From IMG/VR virus record IMGVR_UViG_3300025732_000024, positions 31,305 to 95,304 of that record: a stretch of DNA of 64,000 nt; one strand, given 5' to 3'. The position numbers and the translations under genes were made by a program. Each line of letters begins with the position of its first letter. Position 1 is the first letter of the stretch. This DNA comes from a virus. The notes beneath the pieces were generated by a model. The model was not told the origin of the DNA. It worked only from the letters and a program-made list of their open reading frames with translations, and did not search any database. Positions 231 to 56,804 of this stretch are shown in pieces.

Positions 231-599
231 TTAAATAACAATAGGGTCAAAAATGAGGATTCTACTTTGTTCCAAGGTGTCAGATGCAGCCGGAAGGTGG
301 GTATAGCGAGACACATTAAAACGTTTTTCAATCTTGGCAAGGGCTAAGGGTAAATTAGAGTTTTTTGCCCAATTCCTCAAAGTCACCTCCCACAACTGCG
401 GTTTATACTTATACCCGGCACTGGTAGCACGAGCCACGGTATCAGGTGTTTCCTTAATCAAGCACTCCAGTCCATTACTAGAGGATGGTGGTTGTGAGGA
501 GCTACCGTATACCCACACAGAGGGTGTACCGTTGGTATAAGTACCTAACTCAGTCGCCAACAAAGCCGTTAAAATTCTTCTTAAATCAGCTACCTTCAT
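231..599 (-). CDS. Putative tail terminator/completion protein
   Basis: 122 aa; position after head-tail genes. Confidence 0.45.
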   Translation of the reverse strand: MKVADLRRILTALLATELGTYTNGTPSVWVYGSSSQPPSSSNGLECLIKETPDTVARATSAGYKYKPQLWEVTLRNWAKNSNLPLALAKIEKRFNVSRYTHLPAASDTLEQSRILIFDPIVI

Positions 600-981
600 A
601 CTGCACCTGATAAGAGTTTTTCAACGCACCTGTATCAACGATATCTCTAGGAGAATCAACAACAGCACCACTTTTTCTAACAGTAGTGCGCGGCCATTGC
701 CACCTAGTATCGCTAATATTTGATTGACAATTTTCCCCAAACCCTTCGGACATTTCTAGGAACGCCTGCTTGAAGTTATGGGACTGGGAAAAACTGTCAG
801 CATATTTATTTAAAAAATCATATTCTTTGATAGCAACATCTACCCAGGGTCTGGCAGGTTTTTCGCTGCCATTAACAGAGGTAGAGCCTTCGTGAACAGC
901 AGCCGCATAGGGTGTATTCCAGGAATGAATAGCCTTGAGTTTTTTAGGAATATTCAATTTAATCCAATTAGCTTCTACCAT
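586..981 (-). CDS. HK97 gp10-like tail/neck component
   Basis: Motifs NTPYAAAVHEG, ARPW, VDTGALKNS. Confidence 0.6.
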   Translation of the reverse strand: MVEANWIKLNIPKKLKAIHSWNTPYAAAVHEGSTSVNGSEKPARPWVDVAIKEYDFLNKYADSFSQSHNFKQAFLEMSEGFGENCQSNISDTRWQWPRTTVRKSGAVVDSPRDIVDTGALKNSYQVQYEGS

Positions 982-5133: not shown

Positions 5134-5166
5134 TAATCAATGGAAGTCGCACATAGTAGCGATTTT
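5134..5166 (+). other. Protospacer for CRISPR array 1 spacer 40193-40225, in the divergent intergenic region
   Basis: TAATCAATGGAAGTCGCACATAGTAGCGATTTT is the exact reverse complement of 40193-40225; 5' flank TTAGA. Confidence 0.97.
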
Positions 5167-16362: not shown

Positions 16363-17159
16363 AAAAATCAAGCATTGCTCCAACACAGAAATACGGTAAA
16401 TTAACCGTAATGGAAAGAGACAATGCAAAAACAAACAAAAAGCCTTTTTGGTGCTGCCAATGCGAATGTGGTAGCACTACATCTGTTAGAGCCGATTACC
16501 TGACATCAGGAAAAATCGTATCCTGTGGATGCTATAGAAATAGTAAATTTAAAGCATCACCAGAAAACATTGAACAGTGCAAAGAACTGTTCAACCAAGG
16601 CAAAAGCATTAATGAAATAGCTGCGTTAATGCGGATTTCACCATCTAACGTCCAGAAGTTTTTATCTACTTCTGGCATTGAAACCGAATGTATTTCAAGG
16701 GAGGAATTAAAAGCCTACAAAGAAGAAGATAAGCTGCGATGGGCTAAAAAATATGTCATTTTCAAGATGTCGTTGAGCGCGATCGCCGAAGGAGAAAATA
16801 CCACGACAGCATCTATATCTAGGTCTCTCAATAAACTCGGTATACCCATGAGAGAACCGGGAAGTCAATCTGCTGAAATGCTCTCTCGATTTAAAGCAAA
16901 AGCCAATGAATACTGGCAGTTTTACAAAGATGGGATATCTTCGGTTGAGATTGCTAAATTATTCGATTTATCAAGTCCAAATGTTGTGCTTTATATCCTC
17001 AAAGCACATGGATACAAAATAAGAACAAATCAGGAAGTGCGTAGAGTAAAAAGGATTAACTTCAGGAAAGAAACTAGAAGCTTAATAAAGACTCGCGGAG
17101 TCAAATTAAGCGAAACAAGGAAAGCTGAAAAGCTTCGCAACTTAGAAGAATTAAAATGA
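16359..17159 (+). CDS. Cys-rich N-domain (as in HNH/AP2 homing nucleases) plus tandem HTH domains
   Basis: YGKLTV..WCCQCECG..SCGCY followed by SINEIA, SLSAIA, SSVEIA HTHs. Confidence 0.65.
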   Translation: MKKSSIAPTQKYGKLTVMERDNAKTNKKPFWCCQCECGSTTSVRADYLTSGKIVSCGCYRNSKFKASPENIEQCKELFNQGKSINEIAALMRISPSNVQKFLSTSGIETECISREELKAYKEEDKLRWAKKYVIFKMSLSAIAEGENTTTASISRSLNKLGIPMREPGSQSAEMLSRFKAKANEYWQFYKDGISSVEIAKLFDLSSPNVVLYILKAHGYKIRTNQEVRRVKRINFRKETRSLIKTRGVKLSETRKAEKLRNLEELK

Positions 17160-20394: not shown

Positions 20395-21162
20395 TAGTCA
20401 GTGCGTTTTGCTTTTTACCCGACCACCGCAACATCACGATTATAACACCATATCCAATATTATGCAAGCGGCTGAAACCCTTGCTGTATCTACATCTCTA
20501 CTTTTACTTACAGTATCCTCCTCATCCAGTGGAGACTGCTCATTTGGATTTTTTCTTTTGGAAAATTCTTTTCTTGGATTCCATTCCCATAAGCTCTGCA
20601 TCATGAGAAGGATACTGTAAGTAAAACGCCAAATCCTTGTAGGGTAGGCGGTTCACCGTCAAGCTAGTTAAAGCTGTTGCGATGATTGTACTGATACAGG
20701 CGTCAAGATTGTGACTTTTGTAAAATTCAGTATAAATCTAAGATAAAAGGTGTTGACAATTAATCTGAGATAAATTATATTGATTACATGAGAGGCAAAA
20801 CACTAATCCCAAAACAACCCGCAGGCCTCACGGGGTGCAGATGGTAGGGACTCTGCATTAAGGAAGATGTTTGAACAAATTGAGTCCATGAAATCCGATG
20901 CTGCCAAATGGCAGCCTGAGTTAACTGAAACGTCATTATCTGACTATATGCTTACCCTAGCATCTGCTGGGGATTTAGAAGCTATAGAATGGGTAATAGA
21001 ACACATTATGGAGTCTTCAGAAGAAGACTCTGAAGAGTTTTAGTTGTTACTAACTCCCAATTTGACGGCCATTTCAATCCCGAAATATTAAGTTATGGGG
21101 TAAGAATCAAATTCTTAATGGCCGCATTCCCCGAAACCGTTATTCAATAGGGGACTAATCAA

Positions 21163-23303: not shown

Positions 23304-23720
23304 ATGACTTTTGTAAAACCAGTAATTGCAAATAAAACAGTTAAAAAATACGATAAGGTTCTCTTTGGAAGCGGTTCAAGCCGCCCCTACAGTCCATATA
23401 CCCTACTTAGTGACGTAACTGTCACTACAAAAGATACAAGGTCTACAGGAAGTGTGAGCTTCCATATTTCTGGCACGTTGCCAGATGGTAGAACAATACA
23501 AACAGAAGGATTTTTGTACAAGAAAGGGCGCAGTCCTTGGAAGTTCAGCGGTGCTGGTCTAGCACCATTGGAATATTCCGGTGGTATGTTAAGTCACTGC
23601 CAGGATGCAGTGCATTTTATGTTTGACCCTGGAGAATGGGATAGGTCTTATCGCTACAAATTCCCTGAAACGCTTGTAACGGATACATGGTCTGCCAAGC
23701 AGACGTGGCAAGAATGGTAA
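23304..23720 (+). CDS. Hypothetical protein
   Basis: AAGGAG RBS; promoter upstream. Confidence 0.65.
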   Translation: MTFVKPVIANKTVKKYDKVLFGSGSSRPYSPYTLLSDVTVTTKDTRSTGSVSFHISGTLPDGRTIQTEGFLYKKGRSPWKFSGAGLAPLEYSGGMLSHCQDAVHFMFDPGEWDRSYRYKFPETLVTDTWSAKQTWQEW

Positions 23721-23776
23721 GCCGAAACGGGAGCAATCCCGTCCGCACAGGATGACAACCTGCGCGCTGATGAGGC
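23721..23776 (+). ncRNA. Type II hammerhead ribozyme
   Basis: GCC-GAAA-CGGGA(GCAA)UCCCG-UC^-CGCACAGG(AUGACAA)CCUGCGCG-CUGAUGA-GGC; complete core; cleavage predicted after C23743. Confidence 0.9.
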
Positions 23777-23796
23777 AAGTTAACAAAGGAGCAGGT

Positions 23797-24372
23797 ATGC
23801 GTACAATAGAATTAGCTAAAAAATTGAATTTAAAAGAAAACCAAGCAATCACTTGGTTGTCATTACCGGAATGGAAGCCTTATTTCAGGGTTAGCTTTGA
23901 GGAGAAATTAACTTCTTCATTGAGAAAGGAGATTAGCAAAAGGCTGTGGAAATATCATAGAGTTAGAAATCCCGTTAAGTTCAAGAAAATCCAAGGGGGG
24001 TTCCTTGGGACGGTAAACAATTTAATAGTTGAGGTGAATTTCTATGCTTATTACAAACCAAGCATAGAAGTCACGACAAAATACCCTTATTCAAAGGAAA
24101 CAGAAACTGTTCCTGATGTCTGGATGCCTCAAGAATATTATCTACCAACCATTGACATTAGGGAATTTAATCCGACGGATTACTCTGATGTGGCGCACCC
24201 GCTACACGAGTGGTTTGAACTAGGGGCATCGTTGGGGTATGGGGACGGGTTTTGGAATAGAGACCCTGATGAACCCCTTAATGATACTCCTGAATTCCCT
24301 ACTAGGGAAGCTGAAACAGCTTACCGTGGAGGATATGAAAGAGGATTCACCAACGGGGTAATGGATGAATAA
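23797..24372 (+). CDS. Hypothetical protein (start MRTIEL)
   Basis: AAGGAG RBS between ribozyme and ATG. Confidence 0.65.
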   Translation: MRTIELAKKLNLKENQAITWLSLPEWKPYFRVSFEEKLTSSLRKEISKRLWKYHRVRNPVKFKKIQGGFLGTVNNLIVEVNFYAYYKPSIEVTTKYPYSKETETVPDVWMPQEYYLPTIDIREFNPTDYSDVAHPLHEWFELGASLGYGDGFWNRDPDEPLNDTPEFPTREAETAYRGGYERGFTNGVMDE

Positions 24373-24428
24373 CCCACCTGATGAGTCCGGCTGGCGACCG
24401 GACGAAACACTCCGATGAGTGTCGTGGG
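24373..24428 (+). ncRNA. Type I hammerhead ribozyme, copy A
   Basis: CCCAC-CUGAUGA-GUCCGG(CUGGCGA)CCGGAC-GAAA-CACUC(CGAU)GAGUG-UC^-GUGGG; cleavage predicted after C24423. Confidence 0.93.
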
Positions 24429-24455
24429 CAGCCGTATAATTACACTGGAGAATTT

Positions 24456-24755: not shown

Positions 24756-24756
24756 T

Positions 24757-24812
24757 CCCACCTGATGAGTCCGGCTGGCAACCGGACGAAACACTCCGAT
24801 GAGTGTCGTGGG
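24757..24812 (+). ncRNA. Type I hammerhead ribozyme, copy B
   Basis: Near-identical to 24373-24428 (one loop-II change); direct repeat extends to about 24833; cleavage predicted after C24807. Confidence 0.93.
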
Positions 24813-24839
24813 CAGCCGTATAATTACACTGGATAAACT

Positions 24840-29976: not shown

Positions 29977-31509
29977 ATGACTAACCCGTTTGCATCCAAA
30001 AAAGAAGTATTTGCCCCATTAATTAACGCCGAACGGTGGCTAATGGGTGCGTTCGCTGTGGCTGGCATCGGGTTTACATTCACTCCCGTCATCTGGCCAC
30101 AACAAAGACCGGAAGTTAAGCTGATTCAATCAGTTTTTGGATTATTCTCCAGTGGATGCTTTACCCTTTCAGCTATAGAAAGAAAGAGTAAGGAAAAAGA
30201 CTATCAAGCTATTTCTCACGCTCACCATGAGATTGTAAAAGAGGAACTCAAGGGGCAATTTGCCTTTGAGCAATCACGGCAGCAGATAGAATCTAAGCGC
30301 AAACTTGCCACCTATGTAAACGCATTACCACTAGAAGAAAGGCAGCAATGGGCGATACAATACGGACTACACGGGTTGATTGAGTTGCCACAAATACAGC
30401 AAGCCGTAATTGAGCAGCCGCGACGATTGCCAGGGCGCATCCCTAGTCCTGATATTGCGGATGTAAATGAAGATGCGGTTCAGGAAATTATCAATCCTGG
30501 GGTGATGTCTGTATTGCAAGAATTAGCCGCTCAATACCCTGAATACATCAGGATTGATGAGCAATGGGTTGACGAGTTATGCGATTCATCATCGTTGCAG
30601 GACATGGGGAAACGAGCTAACCATCACTTCAGTTTTTGGGGTGAAACCCAATCTGGTAAATCAACTTTAGCAGGTGTTTTTATCAATAAAATAGCTGCTA
30701 AGTCTCAAAGCCCAGCCATAGTCATTGGTTCAGACCCCAAGAATTATTTAACTACTTGGCTATGTAAATTTAGCCGTAAATTTGACGGGTTCAAAGATAA
30801 TTTAGATGACTGGGTAACGTTTGCCACAAAGGTTATAGACTCCAGGCAAAACGAATATAAAGACAACAAAAAAGGAACGGGTTTACCCGAATTATTTTTA
30901 ATTCAGGACGAGGTAAACGTAGTCTATGGCGAAGGAAAAGGCTTACTCGGTCAAGTCCCTAAAGAGACAGCATTGAACCTTTGCGCTATGTGGAATTACA
31001 TCATTAATTTCACAGCCGCCATGAAGATTCACGGTATATTCATGGGACAAAACCCATTAAGTGGTTACACAGGTTTTAGTCGTCCAGCACTTAAAAATAT
31101 CTGTTTTTTAGCATTAGGAAAAGTATCGAATTACGTCCTAACTAAAATGCCAGAAATATTAAATGTAAAATCAGAAATCCTGGAATTATTAGGTAATGCC
31201 TGTGAACTACTTGATAAAGGGGGCGTACGCTATGCTTTAGTAGTTCCCACTCGTGGCAATCCTTACGTAGCACTAATTCCTACATTTGATATTAATTCAT
31301 TAGAGCAAACAACACAACCCCAAGCAGACGATGAACAAGAAGCAAGTGACGCGACTAACTGGTATGAAATCTTAGTTGAATGGGTAAAACAATTAGAAAG
31401 ACAACCCACGCCCCAAGAACTTAAAGCAGCATGGAAACAACTAACCAAGCAAGAATTAAATGATAGCGGCGTTGCTCTGTTAATGGAGAAACTAGGATTC
31501 AAGGAATAA
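29977..31509 (+). CDS. Membrane-anchored FtsK/HerA-like P-loop ATPase
   Basis: Two N-terminal TM segments; GETQSGKST; LIQDE; GQNP. Confidence 0.75.
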   Translation: MTNPFASKKEVFAPLINAERWLMGAFAVAGIGFTFTPVIWPQQRPEVKLIQSVFGLFSSGCFTLSAIERKSKEKDYQAISHAHHEIVKEELKGQFAFEQSRQQIESKRKLATYVNALPLEERQQWAIQYGLHGLIELPQIQQAVIEQPRRLPGRIPSPDIADVNEDAVQEIINPGVMSVLQELAAQYPEYIRIDEQWVDELCDSSSLQDMGKRANHHFSFWGETQSGKSTLAGVFINKIAAKSQSPAIVIGSDPKNYLTTWLCKFSRKFDGFKDNLDDWVTFATKVIDSRQNEYKDNKKGTGLPELFLIQDEVNVVYGEGKGLLGQVPKETALNLCAMWNYIINFTAAMKIHGIFMGQNPLSGYTGFSRPALKNICFLALGKVSNYVLTKMPEILNVKSEILELLGNACELLDKGGVRYALVVPTRGNPYVALIPTFDINSLEQTTQPQADDEQEASDATNWYEILVEWVKQLERQPTPQELKAAWKQLTKQELNDSGVALLMEKLGFKE

Positions 31510-40028: not shown

Positions 40029-40155
40029 ACTTTCCCAGTCTATTCTAATGTTCTGCAAGGTACTAGCTTTGCTCCATCTCATCCAGGATGATATAAAATT
40101 GTTTCGTTCTTCCCAGGTTTTTTGTGGGTTTGTTTCGTTCTTCCCAAGTTCTCGT

Positions 40156-40624
40156 GTTTCGCTCCACCCCAACTCTTTCGCCCCTTAGCAAGAAAATCGC
40201 TACTATGTGCGACTTCCATTGATTAGTTTCCTCCCACCCCAATCCTTTCGCCCCTTAGCAAGCTAAATAAGCCTTTGCTAATTTAGGAGCTAGTTCCTGT
40301 TTCCTCCCACCCCAATCCTTTCGCCCCTTAGCAAGCGTTAATCAGGTCGGTTTTGGGGTTATTTTCTGTGGAGTTTCCTCCCACCCCAACTCTTTCGCCC
40401 CTTAGCAAGAATAGAATGTTATTATCTACATAGCTTATGTCTGAGTTTCCTCCCACCCCAACTCTTTCGCCCCTTAGCAAGTTTTGAGGTTATCTGTGTC
40501 GTATCAGAGTCAGATGTTTCCTCCCACCCCAACTCTTTCGCCCCTTAGCAAGCTATCAGCATCCAGGTTAATTCTTCTATCCGTTGCGTTTCCTCCCACC
40601 CCAACTCTTTCGCCCCTTAGCAAG
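40156..40624 (-). CRISPR. CRISPR array 1: 7 repeats of 37 bp, 6 spacers of 33-37 nt
   Basis: Repeat CTTGCTAAGGGGCGAAAGAGTTGGGGTGGGAGGAAAC at 40156, 40226, 40299, 40373, 40445, 40516, 40588; most divergent 3' end at the trailer repeat 40156. Confidence 0.98.
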
Positions 40625-40771
40625 TCCGTCTTTTCAAAGCCTTATGCAGCAAGGGTTCTGTGAGCGGTTTTGGCGAACCTCTTAAAAAATCTCATTTCAG
40701 CCGCTTCAATTTCTTGCGATGTGTAGCGAAGGAAGCCTGAAAATATTACAATGCCTTGGTTCTGAGGATTT

Positions 40772-40908
40772 GGCGAAAGCCTTGGGATAGAAAGCCAGCC
40801 ATAGCTCCGGCTGGTCTGTGAGGGTCATCACTTCTCCTCTTACTTTTCAGGACGAATCCCTAGAAGTCATAGGCTAACCAAAGTCAGCCACCCGCCCAAA
40901 CTGCGGTG
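40772..40908 (-). ncRNA. Putative tracrRNA 1; leader at 40625-40771
   Basis: Promoter TTGACA(40942-40937)-N17-TAACAT; anti-repeat CUUUCUAUCCCAAGGCUUUCGCC (40794-40772) pairs with repeat 1; homologous to 46278-46414. Confidence 0.8.
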
Positions 40909-41305
40909 ATTTGATGTTAGCCTACATCCTATTAATTGTCAATCAATATATCTATAGTCTTGTTGATGTTTCCGATAATTGATACAATATTCAAACCAGC
41001 ACCGCAAAGGTGGCACACGCACCACCTAAGAGGTTTTACCACTGGCAATATTTCACCCGTGAGGGCGGGCTACTTTATATGTCTAATGATACCTCAAAAC
41101 TGTTGTTGCAACAATTGATTCAGGATTTACCAGGGGTGAAGGACTTGCTGTTTCACGGTTGGTAGAGGTTTTTGTTAATTATCGAAAAGTCAATAAGACT
41201 ATTGAAGAAATGATATGATTACTGAAACCATCCCACTCAGGAATATTTGCGGTATTCCGGTGGTTTCAATGGTTAGTCCACTCTACTTAATTCCCTTAGT
41301 GAACT

Positions 41306-42067: not shown

Positions 42068-42526
42068 TTAATTTAGTCGGTCGCATCTTTGGGGCGATCG
42101 CAGCTTCGTAATTCAGTAAGAAACACAAGGAGTGATGAAAAATACATGATTTATGACTACGCTGACCTTTATGATTATTCTATGATAAACGTAGGTAGTC
42201 GGGTTAGATCAACGATTCATAAAAACATGGCTGGGATAGTTGCAAAGAAAGAAGTAATAGAAGTATCCGGCATTCCTTCTGCTACCTTTATCACGGTTCA
42301 ATGGGATAACGGTGAAATATCACATCCGTATCCGCACCAGATAGCTATTGAGCTAGTTCTAAATAAATAAACTTGTCAAATTATTATTGTTACAACTTAT
42401 CGAAAAGTCAATGAGACTATTGAAAACATGATATGATTACTGAAACCATCCCACTCAGGAATATTTACGGTATTCCGGTGGTTTCGATGGTTAGCTTTTC
42501 ACCCGGAAAGGACGGGTTACTTTGCT

Positions 42527-43441: not shown

Positions 43442-44095
43442 ATGGAATCATACACAGAAGATAGTCCATTTGTTCCTAGTTTTTCTATCAAGAAACTAGC
43501 AAAAACGCTATTGGGAGATCACAATAATCTGCCAGATTCACCTGGTATTTACTTTGCCTTAGACGCTGCTAATCGTGTTTGGTATGTCGGCATATCAACC
43601 ACCAGCCTAAGAAATCGCCATGCTAGTCACGAGAAATTACCAGAGTTCAAAGAACATAAAGTGCAGTACATAGCCTACTTTGTATGGACTGACATAGACG
43701 ATTTAGAAGAATGGGAAATAGGCTATATCCAGAAATTTAATCCCCCATTAAACATAAACCATATCCAAAAAGAATTACCTCAGATTGACTTAGGGTATGG
43801 TGAGGAACACTACATCAGCAGATACAGAGAAATAAAAGAGCAAATAGCTTTGTTAGAACAGGAAATGGAAGAATTAAAGCCAAATCTTGTTACCTTATTA
43901 GAACGTGAAGGTGGGAAAATATCTCATAAACCCCTGGGATTTAGTGGATACCTAACATCACGCAAATCTTACCAATATTCATCAAAAGTAGAAGCTATCA
44001 AAGAGCTACTAAAACAATCTCAGAAACAAGAAGAAGAGGACGGTACTGCTATTGTGAAATCCGTCACAACTTACCCAACATTTAGATTTAGATAG
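43442..44095 (+). CDS. GIY-YIG domain protein
   Basis: PGIY...WYVG...LRNR...E..YI.KFNPPLN. Confidence 0.8.
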   Translation: MESYTEDSPFVPSFSIKKLAKTLLGDHNNLPDSPGIYFALDAANRVWYVGISTTSLRNRHASHEKLPEFKEHKVQYIAYFVWTDIDDLEEWEIGYIQKFNPPLNINHIQKELPQIDLGYGEEHYISRYREIKEQIALLEQEMEELKPNLVTLLEREGGKISHKPLGFSGYLTSRKSYQYSSKVEAIKELLKQSQKQEEEDGTAIVKSVTTYPTFRFR

Positions 44096-44378: not shown

Positions 44379-46247
44379 ATGAAAACAATCAAAATCAAGG
44401 TAAAGCTAACACCTAGTCAAATAGAATCCTGCGATAAATATTTAGAAGAATTATCCTGGTTGTGGAACTTGGTCCTAGCCAATCAACTGCACAATCACTG
44501 TATTCGCTGGTATGAATGGGCTGCTAAACTTAGTGCCGAATTAGCAAAAACCAACGAGAAGTTAGAGAAATTAAAACCAGAACAACAGCAATTAATTAAA
44601 GATTATTACAACTCCACAACCAAGCCTAAGCTAAGTAAAAAAGACCAAGAATTAGTCAACAAATTCAACATACTCTCTAGATGGAGTCCCTTCGATTTAG
44701 AAGGGATTATTCCCGTCCCTTTGCGTATTGGTAACAGTGCTTATGAAGGACTATCTTGCCAAATTGCCACAGGTGGGAGCTACTGGAAACGAGATGACAA
44801 CACCGTCATTCCCGTTAACACCAAGAAAGGCATAGCATTCATCAAAGGGTCGAAGTTAGTCAAGGGTGACAGACCCTGGCAGCGAATAGAAATAAAGTCC
44901 CATGAGTACAGGAAATTCCCCGGCGGTAAATACGAAGGACGGGAATTAATCACCTTAGAAAAATTCGATAATCTCAACGGATTAAACACACTAAGAGCAT
45001 CTCAAAACCTACCAGATTTAACCGTTTCTTCTCACTACATAGGTGGTCTATTGGGATTCTTCAAAGAATCTTGGAAAGCATTTTTGGATTCAAAAAGGAC
45101 AATCAGCAGGAAGCCTAAATTCAAAAAAGATAACGATAAAATTGCAACCTTGTCTAACAGTCAATGCCCACCAAACCGCATAGATGTTGACAAAAACATC
45201 ATAGCCATAACCGGATTCAGTGCAGTGAAAGTTGATGATAAATCCTGGGTAAAACGACTGAATTTATCCCAGTCCTTACCCCGCACCTATATGTTGACAA
45301 AGCAACAATCAGGCTACTACATAAACATTATAGTTGCTCATCCACTGCAAGAAGAGAAGTCAATATTAGCCAACAAACTACCCAAAGTCAAAAAACAATT
45401 TGGAGAAGACAGTCAAGAGTATGCAGATATTAAGTCAAAACTAAAATTCATTGAACAACAAATCAAGGAATCATCAGTCATTGAAGGCAAGGGATTAAGT
45501 GTAGGCATAGACCCAGGCGTTCAGTCAGTTGTGTCCACAGACCACGGTGCTTTATTTTTGCCAAATTTATCTAGGGAGCGTGTTTCTATCCACATAGAAG
45601 AACTCCAATCAAAACTAGATAATGCTGAATCAATCAATGATAAAAAGTGGAAAGAAGCAGGGAACAAAACACCTAGACCTAGAACCAATACCGAGATTAA
45701 ACTACAAGATAAAATCAGAAGATTGCATGAACGCGGCAGCAATTCATCCAATGCCTTTAATCACAAATTATCCACAAGATTATCGCGCACCTATGAACAT
45801 ATTGCCTGGGAAAACACCCAAATCAAAAACCTACTCAAGCAAGTAGAACCCAAATCACTACCAGAAGGTACCGGCTACGCTCACAATGGTGCATCTGCTA
45901 AACGCGGATTAAATTGGATTATGAGACAAAGATGTTTAGGTGATTTAGAAAAAAAGACAAAGCTAAAAGTTGAAAATCGCGGTGGCAGTTTTCAGCAGCC
46001 ACCAGCTAACTACACATCCCAAACTTGCCACCAATGCGGACAAAAGGGAGAACGATTATCACAGCATGAATTTATCTGTAAAAACTCCGAATGTAGACTG
46101 TTTAACGTCCCACAACAAGCAGATACCAACGCAGCCAGGAATCACAAACAGAACGCCGGATTTGAATTAGGAGAAGTCAAGTACAACGGCGTAAGATTGA
46201 CATACGAAAAACCCCAAAGATTCAAGAAAAAACGCGCTGACAGTTGA
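44379..46247 (+). CDS. TnpB-derived type V (Cas12-like) effector, 622 aa, RuvC triad intact
   Basis: MKTIKIKVKLT start; RKPKFKK; GIDPG (D378); AWEN (E478); YTSQTCHQCG...CKNSEC; ADTNAARN (D582); tracr/leader/array directly downstream. Confidence 0.88.
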   Translation: MKTIKIKVKLTPSQIESCDKYLEELSWLWNLVLANQLHNHCIRWYEWAAKLSAELAKTNEKLEKLKPEQQQLIKDYYNSTTKPKLSKKDQELVNKFNILSRWSPFDLEGIIPVPLRIGNSAYEGLSCQIATGGSYWKRDDNTVIPVNTKKGIAFIKGSKLVKGDRPWQRIEIKSHEYRKFPGGKYEGRELITLEKFDNLNGLNTLRASQNLPDLTVSSHYIGGLLGFFKESWKAFLDSKRTISRKPKFKKDNDKIATLSNSQCPPNRIDVDKNIIAITGFSAVKVDDKSWVKRLNLSQSLPRTYMLTKQQSGYYINIIVAHPLQEEKSILANKLPKVKKQFGEDSQEYADIKSKLKFIEQQIKESSVIEGKGLSVGIDPGVQSVVSTDHGALFLPNLSRERVSIHIEELQSKLDNAESINDKKWKEAGNKTPRPRTNTEIKLQDKIRRLHERGSNSSNAFNHKLSTRLSRTYEHIAWENTQIKNLLKQVEPKSLPEGTGYAHNGASAKRGLNWIMRQRCLGDLEKKTKLKVENRGGSFQQPPANYTSQTCHQCGQKGERLSQHEFICKNSECRLFNVPQQADTNAARNHKQNAGFELGEVKYNGVRLTYEKPQRFKKKRADS

Positions 46248-46277
46248 CAATTAAAACTGCTCATGCTAATATCAAAT

Positions 46278-46414
46278 CACCGCAGTTTGGGCGGGCGGCT
46301 AGTTTAATATTAGCCTATGACTTCTAGGGATTTATCCTGAAAAGTAAGGGGGAAGGTGACAACCCCCATAGACCAGCCGGAACTATGGCTGGCAGCCTTC
46401 AAAATCACTCGCGC
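46278..46414 (+). ncRNA. Putative tracrRNA 2; leader at 46415-46561
   Basis: TTGACA(46244-46249, overlapping the cas stop)-N17-TAATAT; hairpins co-vary with tracrRNA 1; anti-repeat-like CAGCCUUCAAAAUCACUCGC at 46393-46412. Confidence 0.78.
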
Positions 46415-46561
46415 AATGCCCAGAACCAAGAAAATGCAAGGGATTCAGGCAATCCTTTCGATACATAGCAAGTTGCTAAAGCGGCTGAAATGAGATTTTT
46501 CAGAAGACCCGCGCAAATGGCACTCAGAACCCTTGCTAGACAAGACTTTGAAGATGCGGCA

Positions 46562-47088
46562 CTTGCAAGAAGGGCGGAGGGATGAGAGGTGCTGAAACTA
46601 TTCTGATGGGATGAACGAGCTTATAGCCTGCGACTTGCAAGAAGGGCGGAGGGATGAGAGGTGCTGAAACTATTCTGATGGGATGAACGAGCTTATAGCC
46701 TGCGACTTGCAAGAAGGGCGGAGGGATGAGAGGTGCTGAAACAACGTTAGCGGATACATTACCCTCTAAAGGCATACAACCTTGCAAGAAGGGCGGAGGG
46801 ATGAGAGGGGTTGAAACGCGTGTGGCTGACTTTGGTTAGCCTATGACTTCTAGGGACTTGCAAGAAGGGCGGAGGATAGAAAGGACTGAAACCTCCAGAA
46901 ATTTAATAGCATTATCATTGCGGACAGCAGCTTGCAATAGGCAGAGGAAAAAGAAGGACTGAAACTAGCTTAAAGCAGCAATCAATCAACTTTACCAACC
47001 CTTGCAGCAACGCCAGACCAGGAAGGACTGAAACGCGAAACAGCAGCTTAATGATTGCCGCAATAACAAGCACAAAGAAGGCCGAAAC
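46562..47088 (+). CRISPR. CRISPR array 2: 4 near-consensus 37-bp repeats plus 4 progressively degenerate ones
   Basis: CTTGCAAGAAGGGCGGAGGGATGAGAGGTGCTGAAAC at 46562, 46634, 46706, 46781; variants at 46857, 46931, 47001, about 47054; spacers 1 and 2 identical. Confidence 0.96.
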
Positions 47089-55370: not shown

Positions 55371-56804
55371 ATGATTTCACCAATATTAGTATTACCGCCG
55401 ACTAAATGGGAATTTAGTCAAGAAACAAAAATACAGACCCAAATCACTAAATTAGGTGATGGTTATGGAGTAATAGCTTTAGTACCTAATTCTCTTAGAA
55501 ATACCACCGAAATAGTCATCCCTAATTTAAGTACAGCTATCAAAAACAACATCATTTCTTTGTTTATAGAATATGGAGGCATTACAAAATTTAGGTGGCG
55601 GCCTTTAGATACTTTTCCTTACAAGGAGTACATTTGCGATAAGTGGAGCGTAATTCAGCAAGGAGTGTATTTATGGCAAATAACAGCAACCTTTACCGAG
55701 CAAAAGACAGCCGAACCATCATCTAGCACAGCAATTGATAGGCTAAAGATCAAATATTTCCCATTAGACCCAATTGCCGATTTTACATATGTTAGGCAGT
55801 ATAATTACGGTGCGGCACAAGACGCATTGACATCCCACGGCACTTACCCAGGCTCTGGTGCTTTTATTGGTGGTGTGTTATTGCAAGATGGTAGAGTATT
55901 CTGTGTGCCATACAATTCAACTACAGCGAGAATATACAATCCTGTTACAAATATACTTACAATACCTGGAGGTACTTACCCCGGTGCTATTGCTTTCGCC
56001 GGTGCTTTTGCTGGTGGTGTATTATTAAGCGACTCTAGAGTATTTTGTGTACCGTACAACTCTACTACAGCGAGAATATACAACCCTATTACTAACGCAA
56101 CAACGACACCCGGTGGTACTTATCCGGGCAACATTGGCTTACTTGGTGGTGTATTACTAACTGATGGTCGAGTGTTTTGCGTACCGCACAATTCTACTAC
56201 AGCAAGAATATACAACCCTATTACAGACACACTTGCAACACCCAATGGTACTTATCCAGGTAATAAAGCTTTTGCTGGTGGTGTATTACTAACTGATGGT
56301 CGAGTATTCTGTGTACCACATAACTCTACTACAGCAAGAATATACAATCCTACTACGGACACACTTGCAACACCCAATGGTACTTATCCAGGTAACGGTG
56401 CTTTTTTCGGTGGCGTATTACTGGCTGATGGTCGAGTGTTTTGCGTGCCGCACAATTCTACTACAGCGAGAGTTTTTGATCCTGCCACTAATACATTAAC
56501 CACGCCGAGCGGCATTTCCTCTTTTGGGTTTGTTGGTGGTGTTTTGTTGCCGGACAAGAATGTGTTTTGTGTACCCGCAGTTTCAAGCACAGGTAGAATT
56601 TATAACCCAATTACTAATACTTTAACGGCAACTAATAGCGTGTTTCCTGTAGGAGGAAATACCTTCTATGGTGGTGTCTTGTTACCTGATGGTCGGGTGT
56701 TCTGCGTGCCTCTTGATTCAACCACAGCAAGAATATATGGGACTCGCCTCTCTACCAATCTTCCTATGGGTAGAACGCACTCTGCATTTGATAACAAACT
56801 TTAA
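55371..56804 (+). CDS. gpM-like domain fused to a Kelch-like repeat propeller
   Basis: LGDGY...FRWRP...ITATFTE followed by 7 repeats of GGVLLxDxxVFCVPxxSxTxR. Confidence 0.8.
   Translation: MISPILVLPPTKWEFSQETKIQTQITKLGDGYGVIALVPNSLRNTTEIVIPNLSTAIKNNIISLFIEYGGITKFRWRPLDTFPYKEYICDKWSVIQQGVYLWQITATFTEQKTAEPSSSTAIDRLKIKYFPLDPIADFTYVRQYNYGAAQDALTSHGTYPGSGAFIGGVLLQDGRVFCVPYNSTTARIYNPVTNILTIPGGTYPGAIAFAGAFAGGVLLSDSRVFCVPYNSTTARIYNPITNATTTPGGTYPGNIGLLGGVLLTDGRVFCVPHNSTTARIYNPITDTLATPNGTYPGNKAFAGGVLLTDGRVFCVPHNSTTARIYNPTTDTLATPNGTYPGNGAFFGGVLLADGRVFCVPHNSTTARVFDPATNTLTTPSGISSFGFVGGVLLPDKNVFCVPAVSSTGRIYNPITNTLTATNSVFPVGGNTFYGGVLLPDGRVFCVPLDSTTARIYGTRLSTNLPMGRTHSAFDNKL

Follow-up and report, generated by a model that had tools for sequence, protein, structure and literature searches.

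The closest described relative of the system reported here is Cas12p, also called "Cas12 hacker" (bioRxiv 10.1101/2025.01.20.633832; Nat Microbiol 2026 11:81, cited in PMC13728456; PDB 9jfs and 9jg3). In the preprint, Cas12p is described as a phage-associated nuclease of 500 to 700 aa with a GTN protospacer-adjacent motif (PAM) and a 118-nt trans-activating CRISPR RNA (tracrRNA), a GUUU of which pairs with the AAAC at the end of the repeat (bioRxiv 10.1101/2025.01.20.633832). The preprint also reports activation of the enzyme by bacterial thioredoxin, whose docking site is a thioredoxin-binding (TB) insert surrounding C127 in the REC lobe, and places the family as an early intermediate between TnpB and Cas12. 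Here, we analyze a 64,000-nt stretch of viral DNA (positions 31,305 to 95,304 of IMG/VR record IMGVR_UViG_3300025732_000024), which we call the window and number from its first letter. Sequence comparisons make it very probable that a 622-aa protein encoded in the window, designated P0001, is an ortholog of Cas12p (type V-P), a compact RNA-guided double-stranded DNA nuclease of a freshwater cyanophage.

In a phmmer search of the PDB, residues 1 to 613 of P0001 matched the chain named Cas12p (9jfs_A/9jg3) with 1131 bits. When P0001 was compared with a UniRef entry named Cas12p (P0088), whose residues 129 to 741 align to it as the 9jfs chain does, 478 of 613 positions were identical (78%), with no gaps. 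P0088 also carries a 128-residue tag that includes a SUMO-like segment, in agreement with the 6xHis-SUMO construct of the preprint. We built a maximum-likelihood tree from 69 relatives, with clade support expressed as SH-aLRT values, and found that P0001 falls in a 10-row clade (support of 97) together with the protein of related locus L004 and P0003, the representative of the 90% cluster that contains the characterized Cas12p; this clade lies inside one of 26 rows (support of 100). The C2c8/V-U2 proteins, which include the C2c8-named P0059 and the CL131 phage effector, group apart in a clade of their own (support of 100).

The functional residues of Cas12p were compared by using the lists of pocket, loop, and PAM-contact residues given in the preprint (bioRxiv 10.1101/2025.01.20.633832). 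All 14 published thioredoxin-pocket residues are kept in P0001 under the same numbers as in the solved Cas12p (W44, Y45, W47, L51, W102, F105, L107, I110, I111, V113, L115, C127, I129, and I172), as are 7 of 7 basic residues of the TB.b loop (K137, R138, K149, K150, K156, K159, and K162). The TB insert occupies about residues 95 to 175 of P0001, within the REC lobe; even family members with as little as about 35% identity to P0001 retain both the insert and C127, which the V-U2 clade lacks. Judged from these alignments, the TB insert is a clean feature separating the Cas12p family from V-U2.

A preliminary description of this DNA had called the protein a TnpB-to-Cas12 intermediate of uncertain subtype and had implied that it was new, while noting that nesting within a characterized subtype would remove the novelty. 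Such nesting is what the maximum-likelihood tree gave, and since P0001 lies inside the characterized V-P clade, with 1131 bits to 9jfs and 78% identity, its subtype is no longer uncertain. The "intermediate" part of that description agrees with the placement of the family in the preprint. The effector is thus not new, as the subtype, structure, guide RNA, PAM, and thioredoxin dependence have already been published for Cas12p.

The gene and the elements behind it are arranged as follows.

44379 to 46247, plus strand: cas12p gene, 622 aa, an open frame with an ATG start, encoding a WED/REC lobe, a RuvC domain, and a zinc finger
46244 to 46272, plus strand: tracrRNA-2 promoter, TTGACA-17-TAATAT, with the -35 box overlapping the cas12p stop codon
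46279 to 46396, plus strand: tracrRNA-2, about 118 nt, with a GUUU at positions 7 to 10 that pairs with the 3' AAAC of the repeat and with stems that covary
46397 to 46561, plus strand: leader of array 2
46562 to about 47088, plus strand: CRISPR array 2, with five repeats of 36 to 37 nt, of which the first three are identical, plus three degenerate units

The open 622-aa frame contains every TnpB hallmark motif that the preliminary description had listed (KPKFKK at position 245, GIDPG at 376, YTSQTC at 545, and ADTNAARN at 581), and the RuvC triad that it had called intact is there in full, with D378, E478, and D582 numbered as in the solved Cas12p. A four-cysteine zinc finger (CxxC...CxxxxC) comprises C550, C553, C567, and C572, and the N-terminal sequence MKTIKIK is common to all homologs of P0001. 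Pfam searches gave a Cas12f1-like TNB domain plus a weak match to OrfB_IS605. Because positions 61 to 387 of the NCBIfam guided_TnpB profile align only to residues 209 to 590, P0001 has about 208 N-terminal residues where TnpB has about 60, in keeping with the large N-terminal insertion that had been proposed. This expansion over TnpB is the thioredoxin-binding domain, which the preliminary description had overlooked, as it had the tracrRNA.

The span of tracrRNA-2, about 46279 to 46396, was set by the numbering of the preprint, in which the GUUU occupies positions 7 to 10. Its TTGACA -35 box sits in the end of the cas12p gene at the same place in all relatives, and the first 125 to 127 nt or so after cas12p are conserved in all 11 related loci (the window and ten others). 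When nine distinct copies were aligned, compensatory changes were seen in 14 of the 30 predicted tracrRNA pairs; a search of Rfam returned no family for this RNA. An array follows cas12p in the nine related loci that reach far enough past the gene, and the sequence of another, L005, ends in the leader. Within array 2 of the window, spacers 1 and 2 are identical, and the degenerate units keep only a 3' end, ...GACTGAAAC or ...GCCGAAAC, which is the part of the repeat that is used by the effector.

The window makes up the final 64 kb of a virus record that is complete at 95,304 bp and has direct terminal repeats, and its phage genes include those for a terminase, a Mu-type portal, a head protease/capsid protein, a J-like tail protein, a helicase, Rha, and KilA-N. 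We found no Cas1 or Cas2 in the complete genome, nor any Y1 transposase (TnpA), rve (TnsB), or thioredoxin gene. TniQ was not found in it either, a weak negative, as the TniQ control gave no signal anywhere. The statements in the preliminary description that the protein is phage borne and that cas1/cas2, a nearby tnpA, and tnsB/tniQ are missing therefore hold for the whole genome, weakly so for tniQ. Its GAAAC-ending 37-bp repeats are also real, although there are two arrays rather than one (46562 to about 47088, plus strand, and 40101 to 40624, minus strand), and the presence of an array with a tracrRNA bears out its proposal that the effector uses a CRISPR array.

We weighed three other identities for P0001. 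It is very improbable that P0001 belongs to the uncharacterized V-U2 (C2c8) group, like the effector of the Aphanizomenon phage vB_AphaS-CL131, which was published as V-U2 (PMC6293099). The best NCBIfam model for P0001 is indeed V_cas_c2c8 (NF038192; E value of 1.4e-55, 189 bits), the CL131 effector and a Nostoc C2c8 protein are among its distant matches, and both V-U2 and Cas12p proteins are cyanobacterial or cyanophage borne and have 36- to 37-nt repeats. However, the score of 189 bits compares with a curated cutoff of 350 for that model, the match lies mainly over the RuvC half, and P0001 is only 29% identical to the CL131 effector over 60% of the query. The V-U2 proteins, moreover, make up the separate, fully supported clade (support of 100) that lacks the thioredoxin-binding insert. 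We rejected a V-U2 identity on the missed cutoff and on the tree, which places C2c8 apart.

That P0001 could be a transposon TnpB that uses an omega-RNA, with the arrays as unrelated neighbors, is scarcely credible. The Pfam OrfB_IS605 and TNB domains fit a TnpB, and databases label P0001 "transposase," but the complete genome contains no TnpA, serine recombinase, or second copy. The guided_TnpB profile scored 77.6 against a cutoff of 100, and the IS607 and IS200 TnpB models fell far under their cutoffs. Further, a conserved noncoding RNA with a separate promoter lies downstream of the gene and pairs with the end of the repeat, and an array comes next in the nine related loci mentioned above. 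The subthreshold profile score, the lack of a Y1 transposase, and the presence of array and tracrRNA led us to reject this identity. The third candidate was a nuclease-dead module of the Cas12k kind, which directs a CRISPR-associated transposon (CAST) to its target. P0001 is close to Cas12k in size and has cyanobacterial 37-nt repeats, and the tested Cas12p ortholog is reported to have a GTN PAM and a Cas12k-like PI domain (bioRxiv 10.1101/2025.01.20.633832). We give this identity almost no credence, however, as the RuvC triad of P0001 is intact, rve and TniQ were not found in the complete genome (with the TniQ negative being weak), and P0001 had no significant sequence match to any Cas12k chain in the PDB; it was rejected on these grounds. 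The earlier reading of P0001 as a phage-borne compact type V effector, neither a transposon TnpB nor a Cas12k of a CAST, is upheld.

The mechanism we propose follows from the homology of P0001 to the solved and tested Cas12p. P0001 would bind two RNAs, namely, the tracrRNA of about 118 nt, expressed from a separate promoter immediately after the gene, and a CRISPR RNA that joins the 3' end of a repeat to a spacer. The tracrRNA GUUU would pair with the repeat-terminal AAAC to form a pseudoknot. The N-terminal REC-lobe insert would form a hydrophobic pocket around C127 that captures host thioredoxin, without which the nuclease would be nearly inactive. The RuvC residues D378, E478, and D582 would then cut PAM-flanked DNA, the PAM being GTN in the tested ortholog. 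By analogy with that ortholog, P0001 would be expected to share its nuclease activity and thioredoxin dependence and perhaps its PAM, and the phage might use it against competing phages.

The thioredoxin step was modeled with residues 1 to 235 of P0001 and the thioredoxin of Anabaena sp. WFMT, which keeps the WCGPC center and most contact residues. The predicted complex had a score of 0.83, compared with 0.01 for the best control. Of 80 solved complexes, 58 reached that mark, as did 2 of 110 mismatched pairs. The runs shared at least 97% of contacts, the predicted local distance difference test (pLDDT) value of the partner was at least 91, and in the model C127 contacts the WCGPC of the thioredoxin active-site loop. 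The prediction speaks for likeness to the known complex, not for binding, and the pass may simply reproduce a like complex that has already been solved.

The window phage also contains a second tracrRNA-array module, about 4 kb upstream of the gene, with the following parts.

40914 to 40942, minus strand: tracrRNA-1 promoter, TTGACA-17-TAACAT
40790 to 40907, minus strand: tracrRNA-1, a paralog of tracrRNA-2 (about 76% identical)
40625 to 40789, minus strand: leader of array 1
40101 to 40624, minus strand: CRISPR array 1, with seven 37-nt repeats and two degenerate units

The two modules (40101 to 40942, minus strand, and 46244 to 47088, plus strand) lie in opposite orientation around a 5-kb block and share one cas12p; we found no second cas12p gene or fragment in the complete genome, so array 1 is without an effector of its own. 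The duplicated unit begins exactly at the -35 box. Repeats 1 and 2 are identical at 21 of 37 positions. The 3' tail of tracrRNA-1, down to about position 40766, is complementary to repeat 1, and its predicted pairing is -26 kcal/mol with its own repeat versus -17 kcal/mol with repeat 2, while tracrRNA-2 prefers its own repeat only slightly. Among the loci fetched, the second module occurs only in the window phage and in a 98%-identical sibling, L003.

The DNA between the two arrays has features of its own. A 98-nt direct repeat (95% identical; 41179 to 41276 and 42397 to 42494), for which Rfam gave no match, brackets a Rha-like gene and a 93-aa open reading frame. A gene with a weak GIY-YIG nuclease domain (43442 to 44095, plus strand) follows the Rha-like and KilA-N genes and precedes cas12p by two open reading frames. 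The GIY-YIG, Rha-like, and KilA-N genes suggest that an accessory, mobile-looking block separates the arrays.

The two arrays of the window comprise 17 repeat-spacer units with 15 distinct full-length spacers, and 3 of the 17 units match the phage's own genome. These sites, and a site in cas12p that is matched by a spacer of the sibling, are as follows.

5134 to 5166, plus strand: own-genome match (33/33) of array 1 spacer 6 (40193 to 40225), 5' flank AGA
40857 to 40895, minus strand: own-genome match (38/39) of array 2 spacer 4 (46818 to 46856), inside tracrRNA-1, 5' flank TGG, mismatch at position 4
20702 to 20738 of the complete genome: own-genome match (37/38) of the array 2 spacer at 46743 to 46780, mismatch at spacer position 1
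45403 to 45438, plus strand: cas12p site matched 36/36 by spacer 2 of L003 array 2, with the L003 copy itself matching 35/36

The first of these sites lies in a noncoding, divergent intergenic gap that adjoins the head protease/capsid gene. The L003 copy of cas12p mismatches the L003 spacer (array at L003:5287-5613) at position 6. None of the three own-genome sites has a 5' GTN, nor does the cas12p site matched by the sibling. L011, another relative, also matches itself; in that case the flank is GTG, and four of the first 11 positions are mismatched. Array 2 of L003 shares its trailer-end units with array 2 of the window, whereas the leader-end spacers differ between these 98%-identical genomes, which indicates that acquisition is recent. 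As the genome lacks adaptation genes, acquisition must occur in trans, and we infer that the spacers are supplied by host Cas1-Cas2, which is in line with the earlier suggestion that host machinery acquires them.

Neither window array matched GenBank phages in a distant-mode search with E values of up to 1; the first 22 nt of two leader-end spacers had no match in IMG/VR, and one of them, searched also against metagenome contigs, had none there; and the spacers of five related viral contigs, compared with each other and with the window genome, gave no further matches. A short contig (X6) from a 2024 lake metagenome carries the duplicated leader-end spacer of array 2 (46671 to 46704) flanked by nonarray DNA (5' flank ...GCAATA) and is possibly a natural protospacer in some element. 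On the opposite side, 3 of the 5 near-self protospacers have a GTN, as if the spacers had gone in flipped; this observation is post hoc, one boundary is ambiguous, and we did not use it as evidence.

The self-matches are most simply read as spacers that host enzymes take from phage DNA while it replicates, of which only the harmless ones persist. Tentatively, we propose for the locus as a whole that one Cas12p serves two coevolved tracrRNA-repeat modules whose arrays are filled in trans from the phage's own lineage, including a rival's cas12p and tracrRNA, so that the system could act in sibling warfare or in self-regulation, with self-damage avoided by missing PAMs and seed mismatches. We regard this as possible but, on balance, doubtful. 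Some findings count against our main reading of P0001 as an ortholog that works as the tested Cas12p does. Two of the four published PAM-contact residues are changed in P0001 (N261 to S and K332 to N, with D197 and Q262 kept), so the PAM may differ from GTN. The 5' flanks of seven natural near-self or environmental protospacers are AGA, TGG, TGG, TTG, CGC, GTG, and ATA; since only one of the seven is GTN, either the spacers are not functional guides or the PAM is another one. The window repeats are diverged, with 17 to 18 of 37 positions identical to one Nostocaceae host repeat, and are without a hairpin; of the eight relatives compared, seven have repeats that agree with that host repeat at 27 to 29 of 37 positions, and the repeat of L004 agrees at 22 of 37. 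A role in competition between phages, finally, would appear to draw only on matches to self and to a sibling.

We also considered a chiefly regulatory Cas12p that targets the genome of its own phage, with guides against the phage's promoter region, tracrRNA-1, and cas12p that tune expression by binding or by attenuated cutting instead of defending against rivals. The 3 own-genome matches among the 17 units (33/33, 37/38, and 38/39), the position of one of them in the divergent intergenic region at 5134 to 5166, and the spacer against cas12p in sibling L003 fit such regulation, and one contig from an RNA library is an L003-type array that includes the cas12p-matching spacer, a weak hint only. 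Nevertheless, we consider a mainly regulatory role unlikely: the tested ortholog does not bind DNA at all unless a GTN PAM is present, and every own-genome site lacks one; the RuvC site is intact; more distant relatives do not share the self-matches; and sampling of replicating phage DNA by host Cas1-Cas2 would be expected to yield self-derived spacers as a by-product, of which only the harmless ones would persist.

The hosts of Cas12p phages are left to be determined in the preprint (bioRxiv 10.1101/2025.01.20.633832). A search with a 20-kb piece of the window phage against 301 genomes from the family to which Anabaena sp. WFMT belongs gave short matches of high identity, and two of the four that we examined lie in Nostocaceae CRISPR arrays (38/39 to window positions 577 to 615 at L024:581-619 and 40/44 to positions 16762 to 16805 at L027:1501-1544). 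Because Nostocaceae CRISPR spacers match the window phage, its host is probably a filamentous cyanobacterium, a conclusion that is well supported. Close homologs of P0001 occur in contigs labeled Nostocaceae, Anabaena, Cuspidothrix, Dolichospermum, and Sphaerospermopsis and in Cylindrospermopsis phages. A terminase search returned no cyanophage relative and was of no help with the host, repeat 2 was not found in the genomes searched among the 301 of Nostocaceae, and the similarity of a host-array leader to the phage-array leaders was within the shuffle range, so that we make no claim from it.

The locus as a whole had no match among GenBank phages at near-identity. Apart from three runs from which the DNA itself may have come, at least half of its sampled words were present in 13 runs from 13 studies, which were freshwater, lake, or algal metagenomes dated 2017 to 2025. 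Contigs from two metatranscriptomic libraries lie on cas12p, the tracrRNA/leader, and the arrays, and one of them (X17) is the L003-type array variant with the cas12p-matching spacer. These contigs are a hint of expression, and a weak one, because they are contigs and DNA can occur in RNA libraries. Parts of the stretch have no RNA-contig cover and depth is uneven between parts, which we did not use as evidence.

Elsewhere in the window, three matches to Rfam hammerhead families (E values of 5e-4 to 4e-3) lie on the plus strand at 23720 to 23784, 24372 to 24429, and 24756 to 24813, all below threshold, with scores of 31.2 bits for type II (gathering threshold of 37) and of 24.6 and 24.3 bits for type I (gathering threshold of 34). 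Tandem repeats of 132 to 144 nt occur at 55857 to 56737 (plus strand), inside a tail-associated gene at 55371 to 56804.

With the effector itself adding nothing to published knowledge, the value of this locus lies in asking what Cas12p does in nature. The window phage provides a native context for the enzyme, with a complete genome, a link to Nostocaceae, recurrence in freshwater and lakes, and a thioredoxin partner of the native type, and its two modules, with spacer turnover between 98%-identical genomes, make natural Cas12p targets and array loading directly testable questions. The host link, the second module, and the self- and sibling-matching spacers go beyond the preprint, although the published version in Nature Microbiology may already name hosts or targets.

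Compared with known systems, the locus shares with V-U2/C2c8 a compact TnpB-derived effector in cyanobacteria or cyanophages, arrays of 36- to 37-nt repeats, a lack of adaptation genes, and an intact RuvC site; it differs in belonging to a separate clade, with 29% identity confined to the C-terminal 60%, and in having the thioredoxin-binding insert that V-U2 lacks. With TnpB of IS200/IS605 elements (e.g., ISDra2; PDB 8h1j and 8exa), P0001 has in common the WED-RuvC-zinc-finger core, and the preprint relates the stems of the Cas12p tracrRNA to those of the omega-RNA (bioRxiv 10.1101/2025.01.20.633832). Unlike TnpB, P0001 is about 200 residues longer at the N terminus and has no transposase partner, and it would take its guide from a CRISPR array and a separate tracrRNA and need a host cofactor. 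Cas12k (type V-K, CAST) resembles P0001 in its size, in its origin in cyanobacteria, and in having 37-nt repeats that end in GAAAC or GAAAG, and the degenerate trailing repeat-spacer units recall the truncated units of V-K arrays; Cas12k, in contrast, has no catalytic activity and acts together with TnsB, TnsC, and TniQ, whereas the RuvC site of P0001 is intact and no Tn7 genes were found in the genome.

From the published Cas12p, the window system differs in that the PAM contacts N261 and K332 of the tested protein are S and N in P0001, in that its repeats are purine rich and without the hairpin seen in most relatives, and in its second tracrRNA-array module. The phage genome is, in addition, complete (95 kb, with terminal repeats) and tied to Nostocaceae, whereas the preprint left the host open. 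P0001 and Cas12p are of the same length class, with the same numbering for the RuvC triad, the thioredoxin pocket, C127, and the basic loop, and in both the tracrRNA lies between gene and array, GUUU pairs with AAAC, no other cas genes are present, and the context is that of a phage.

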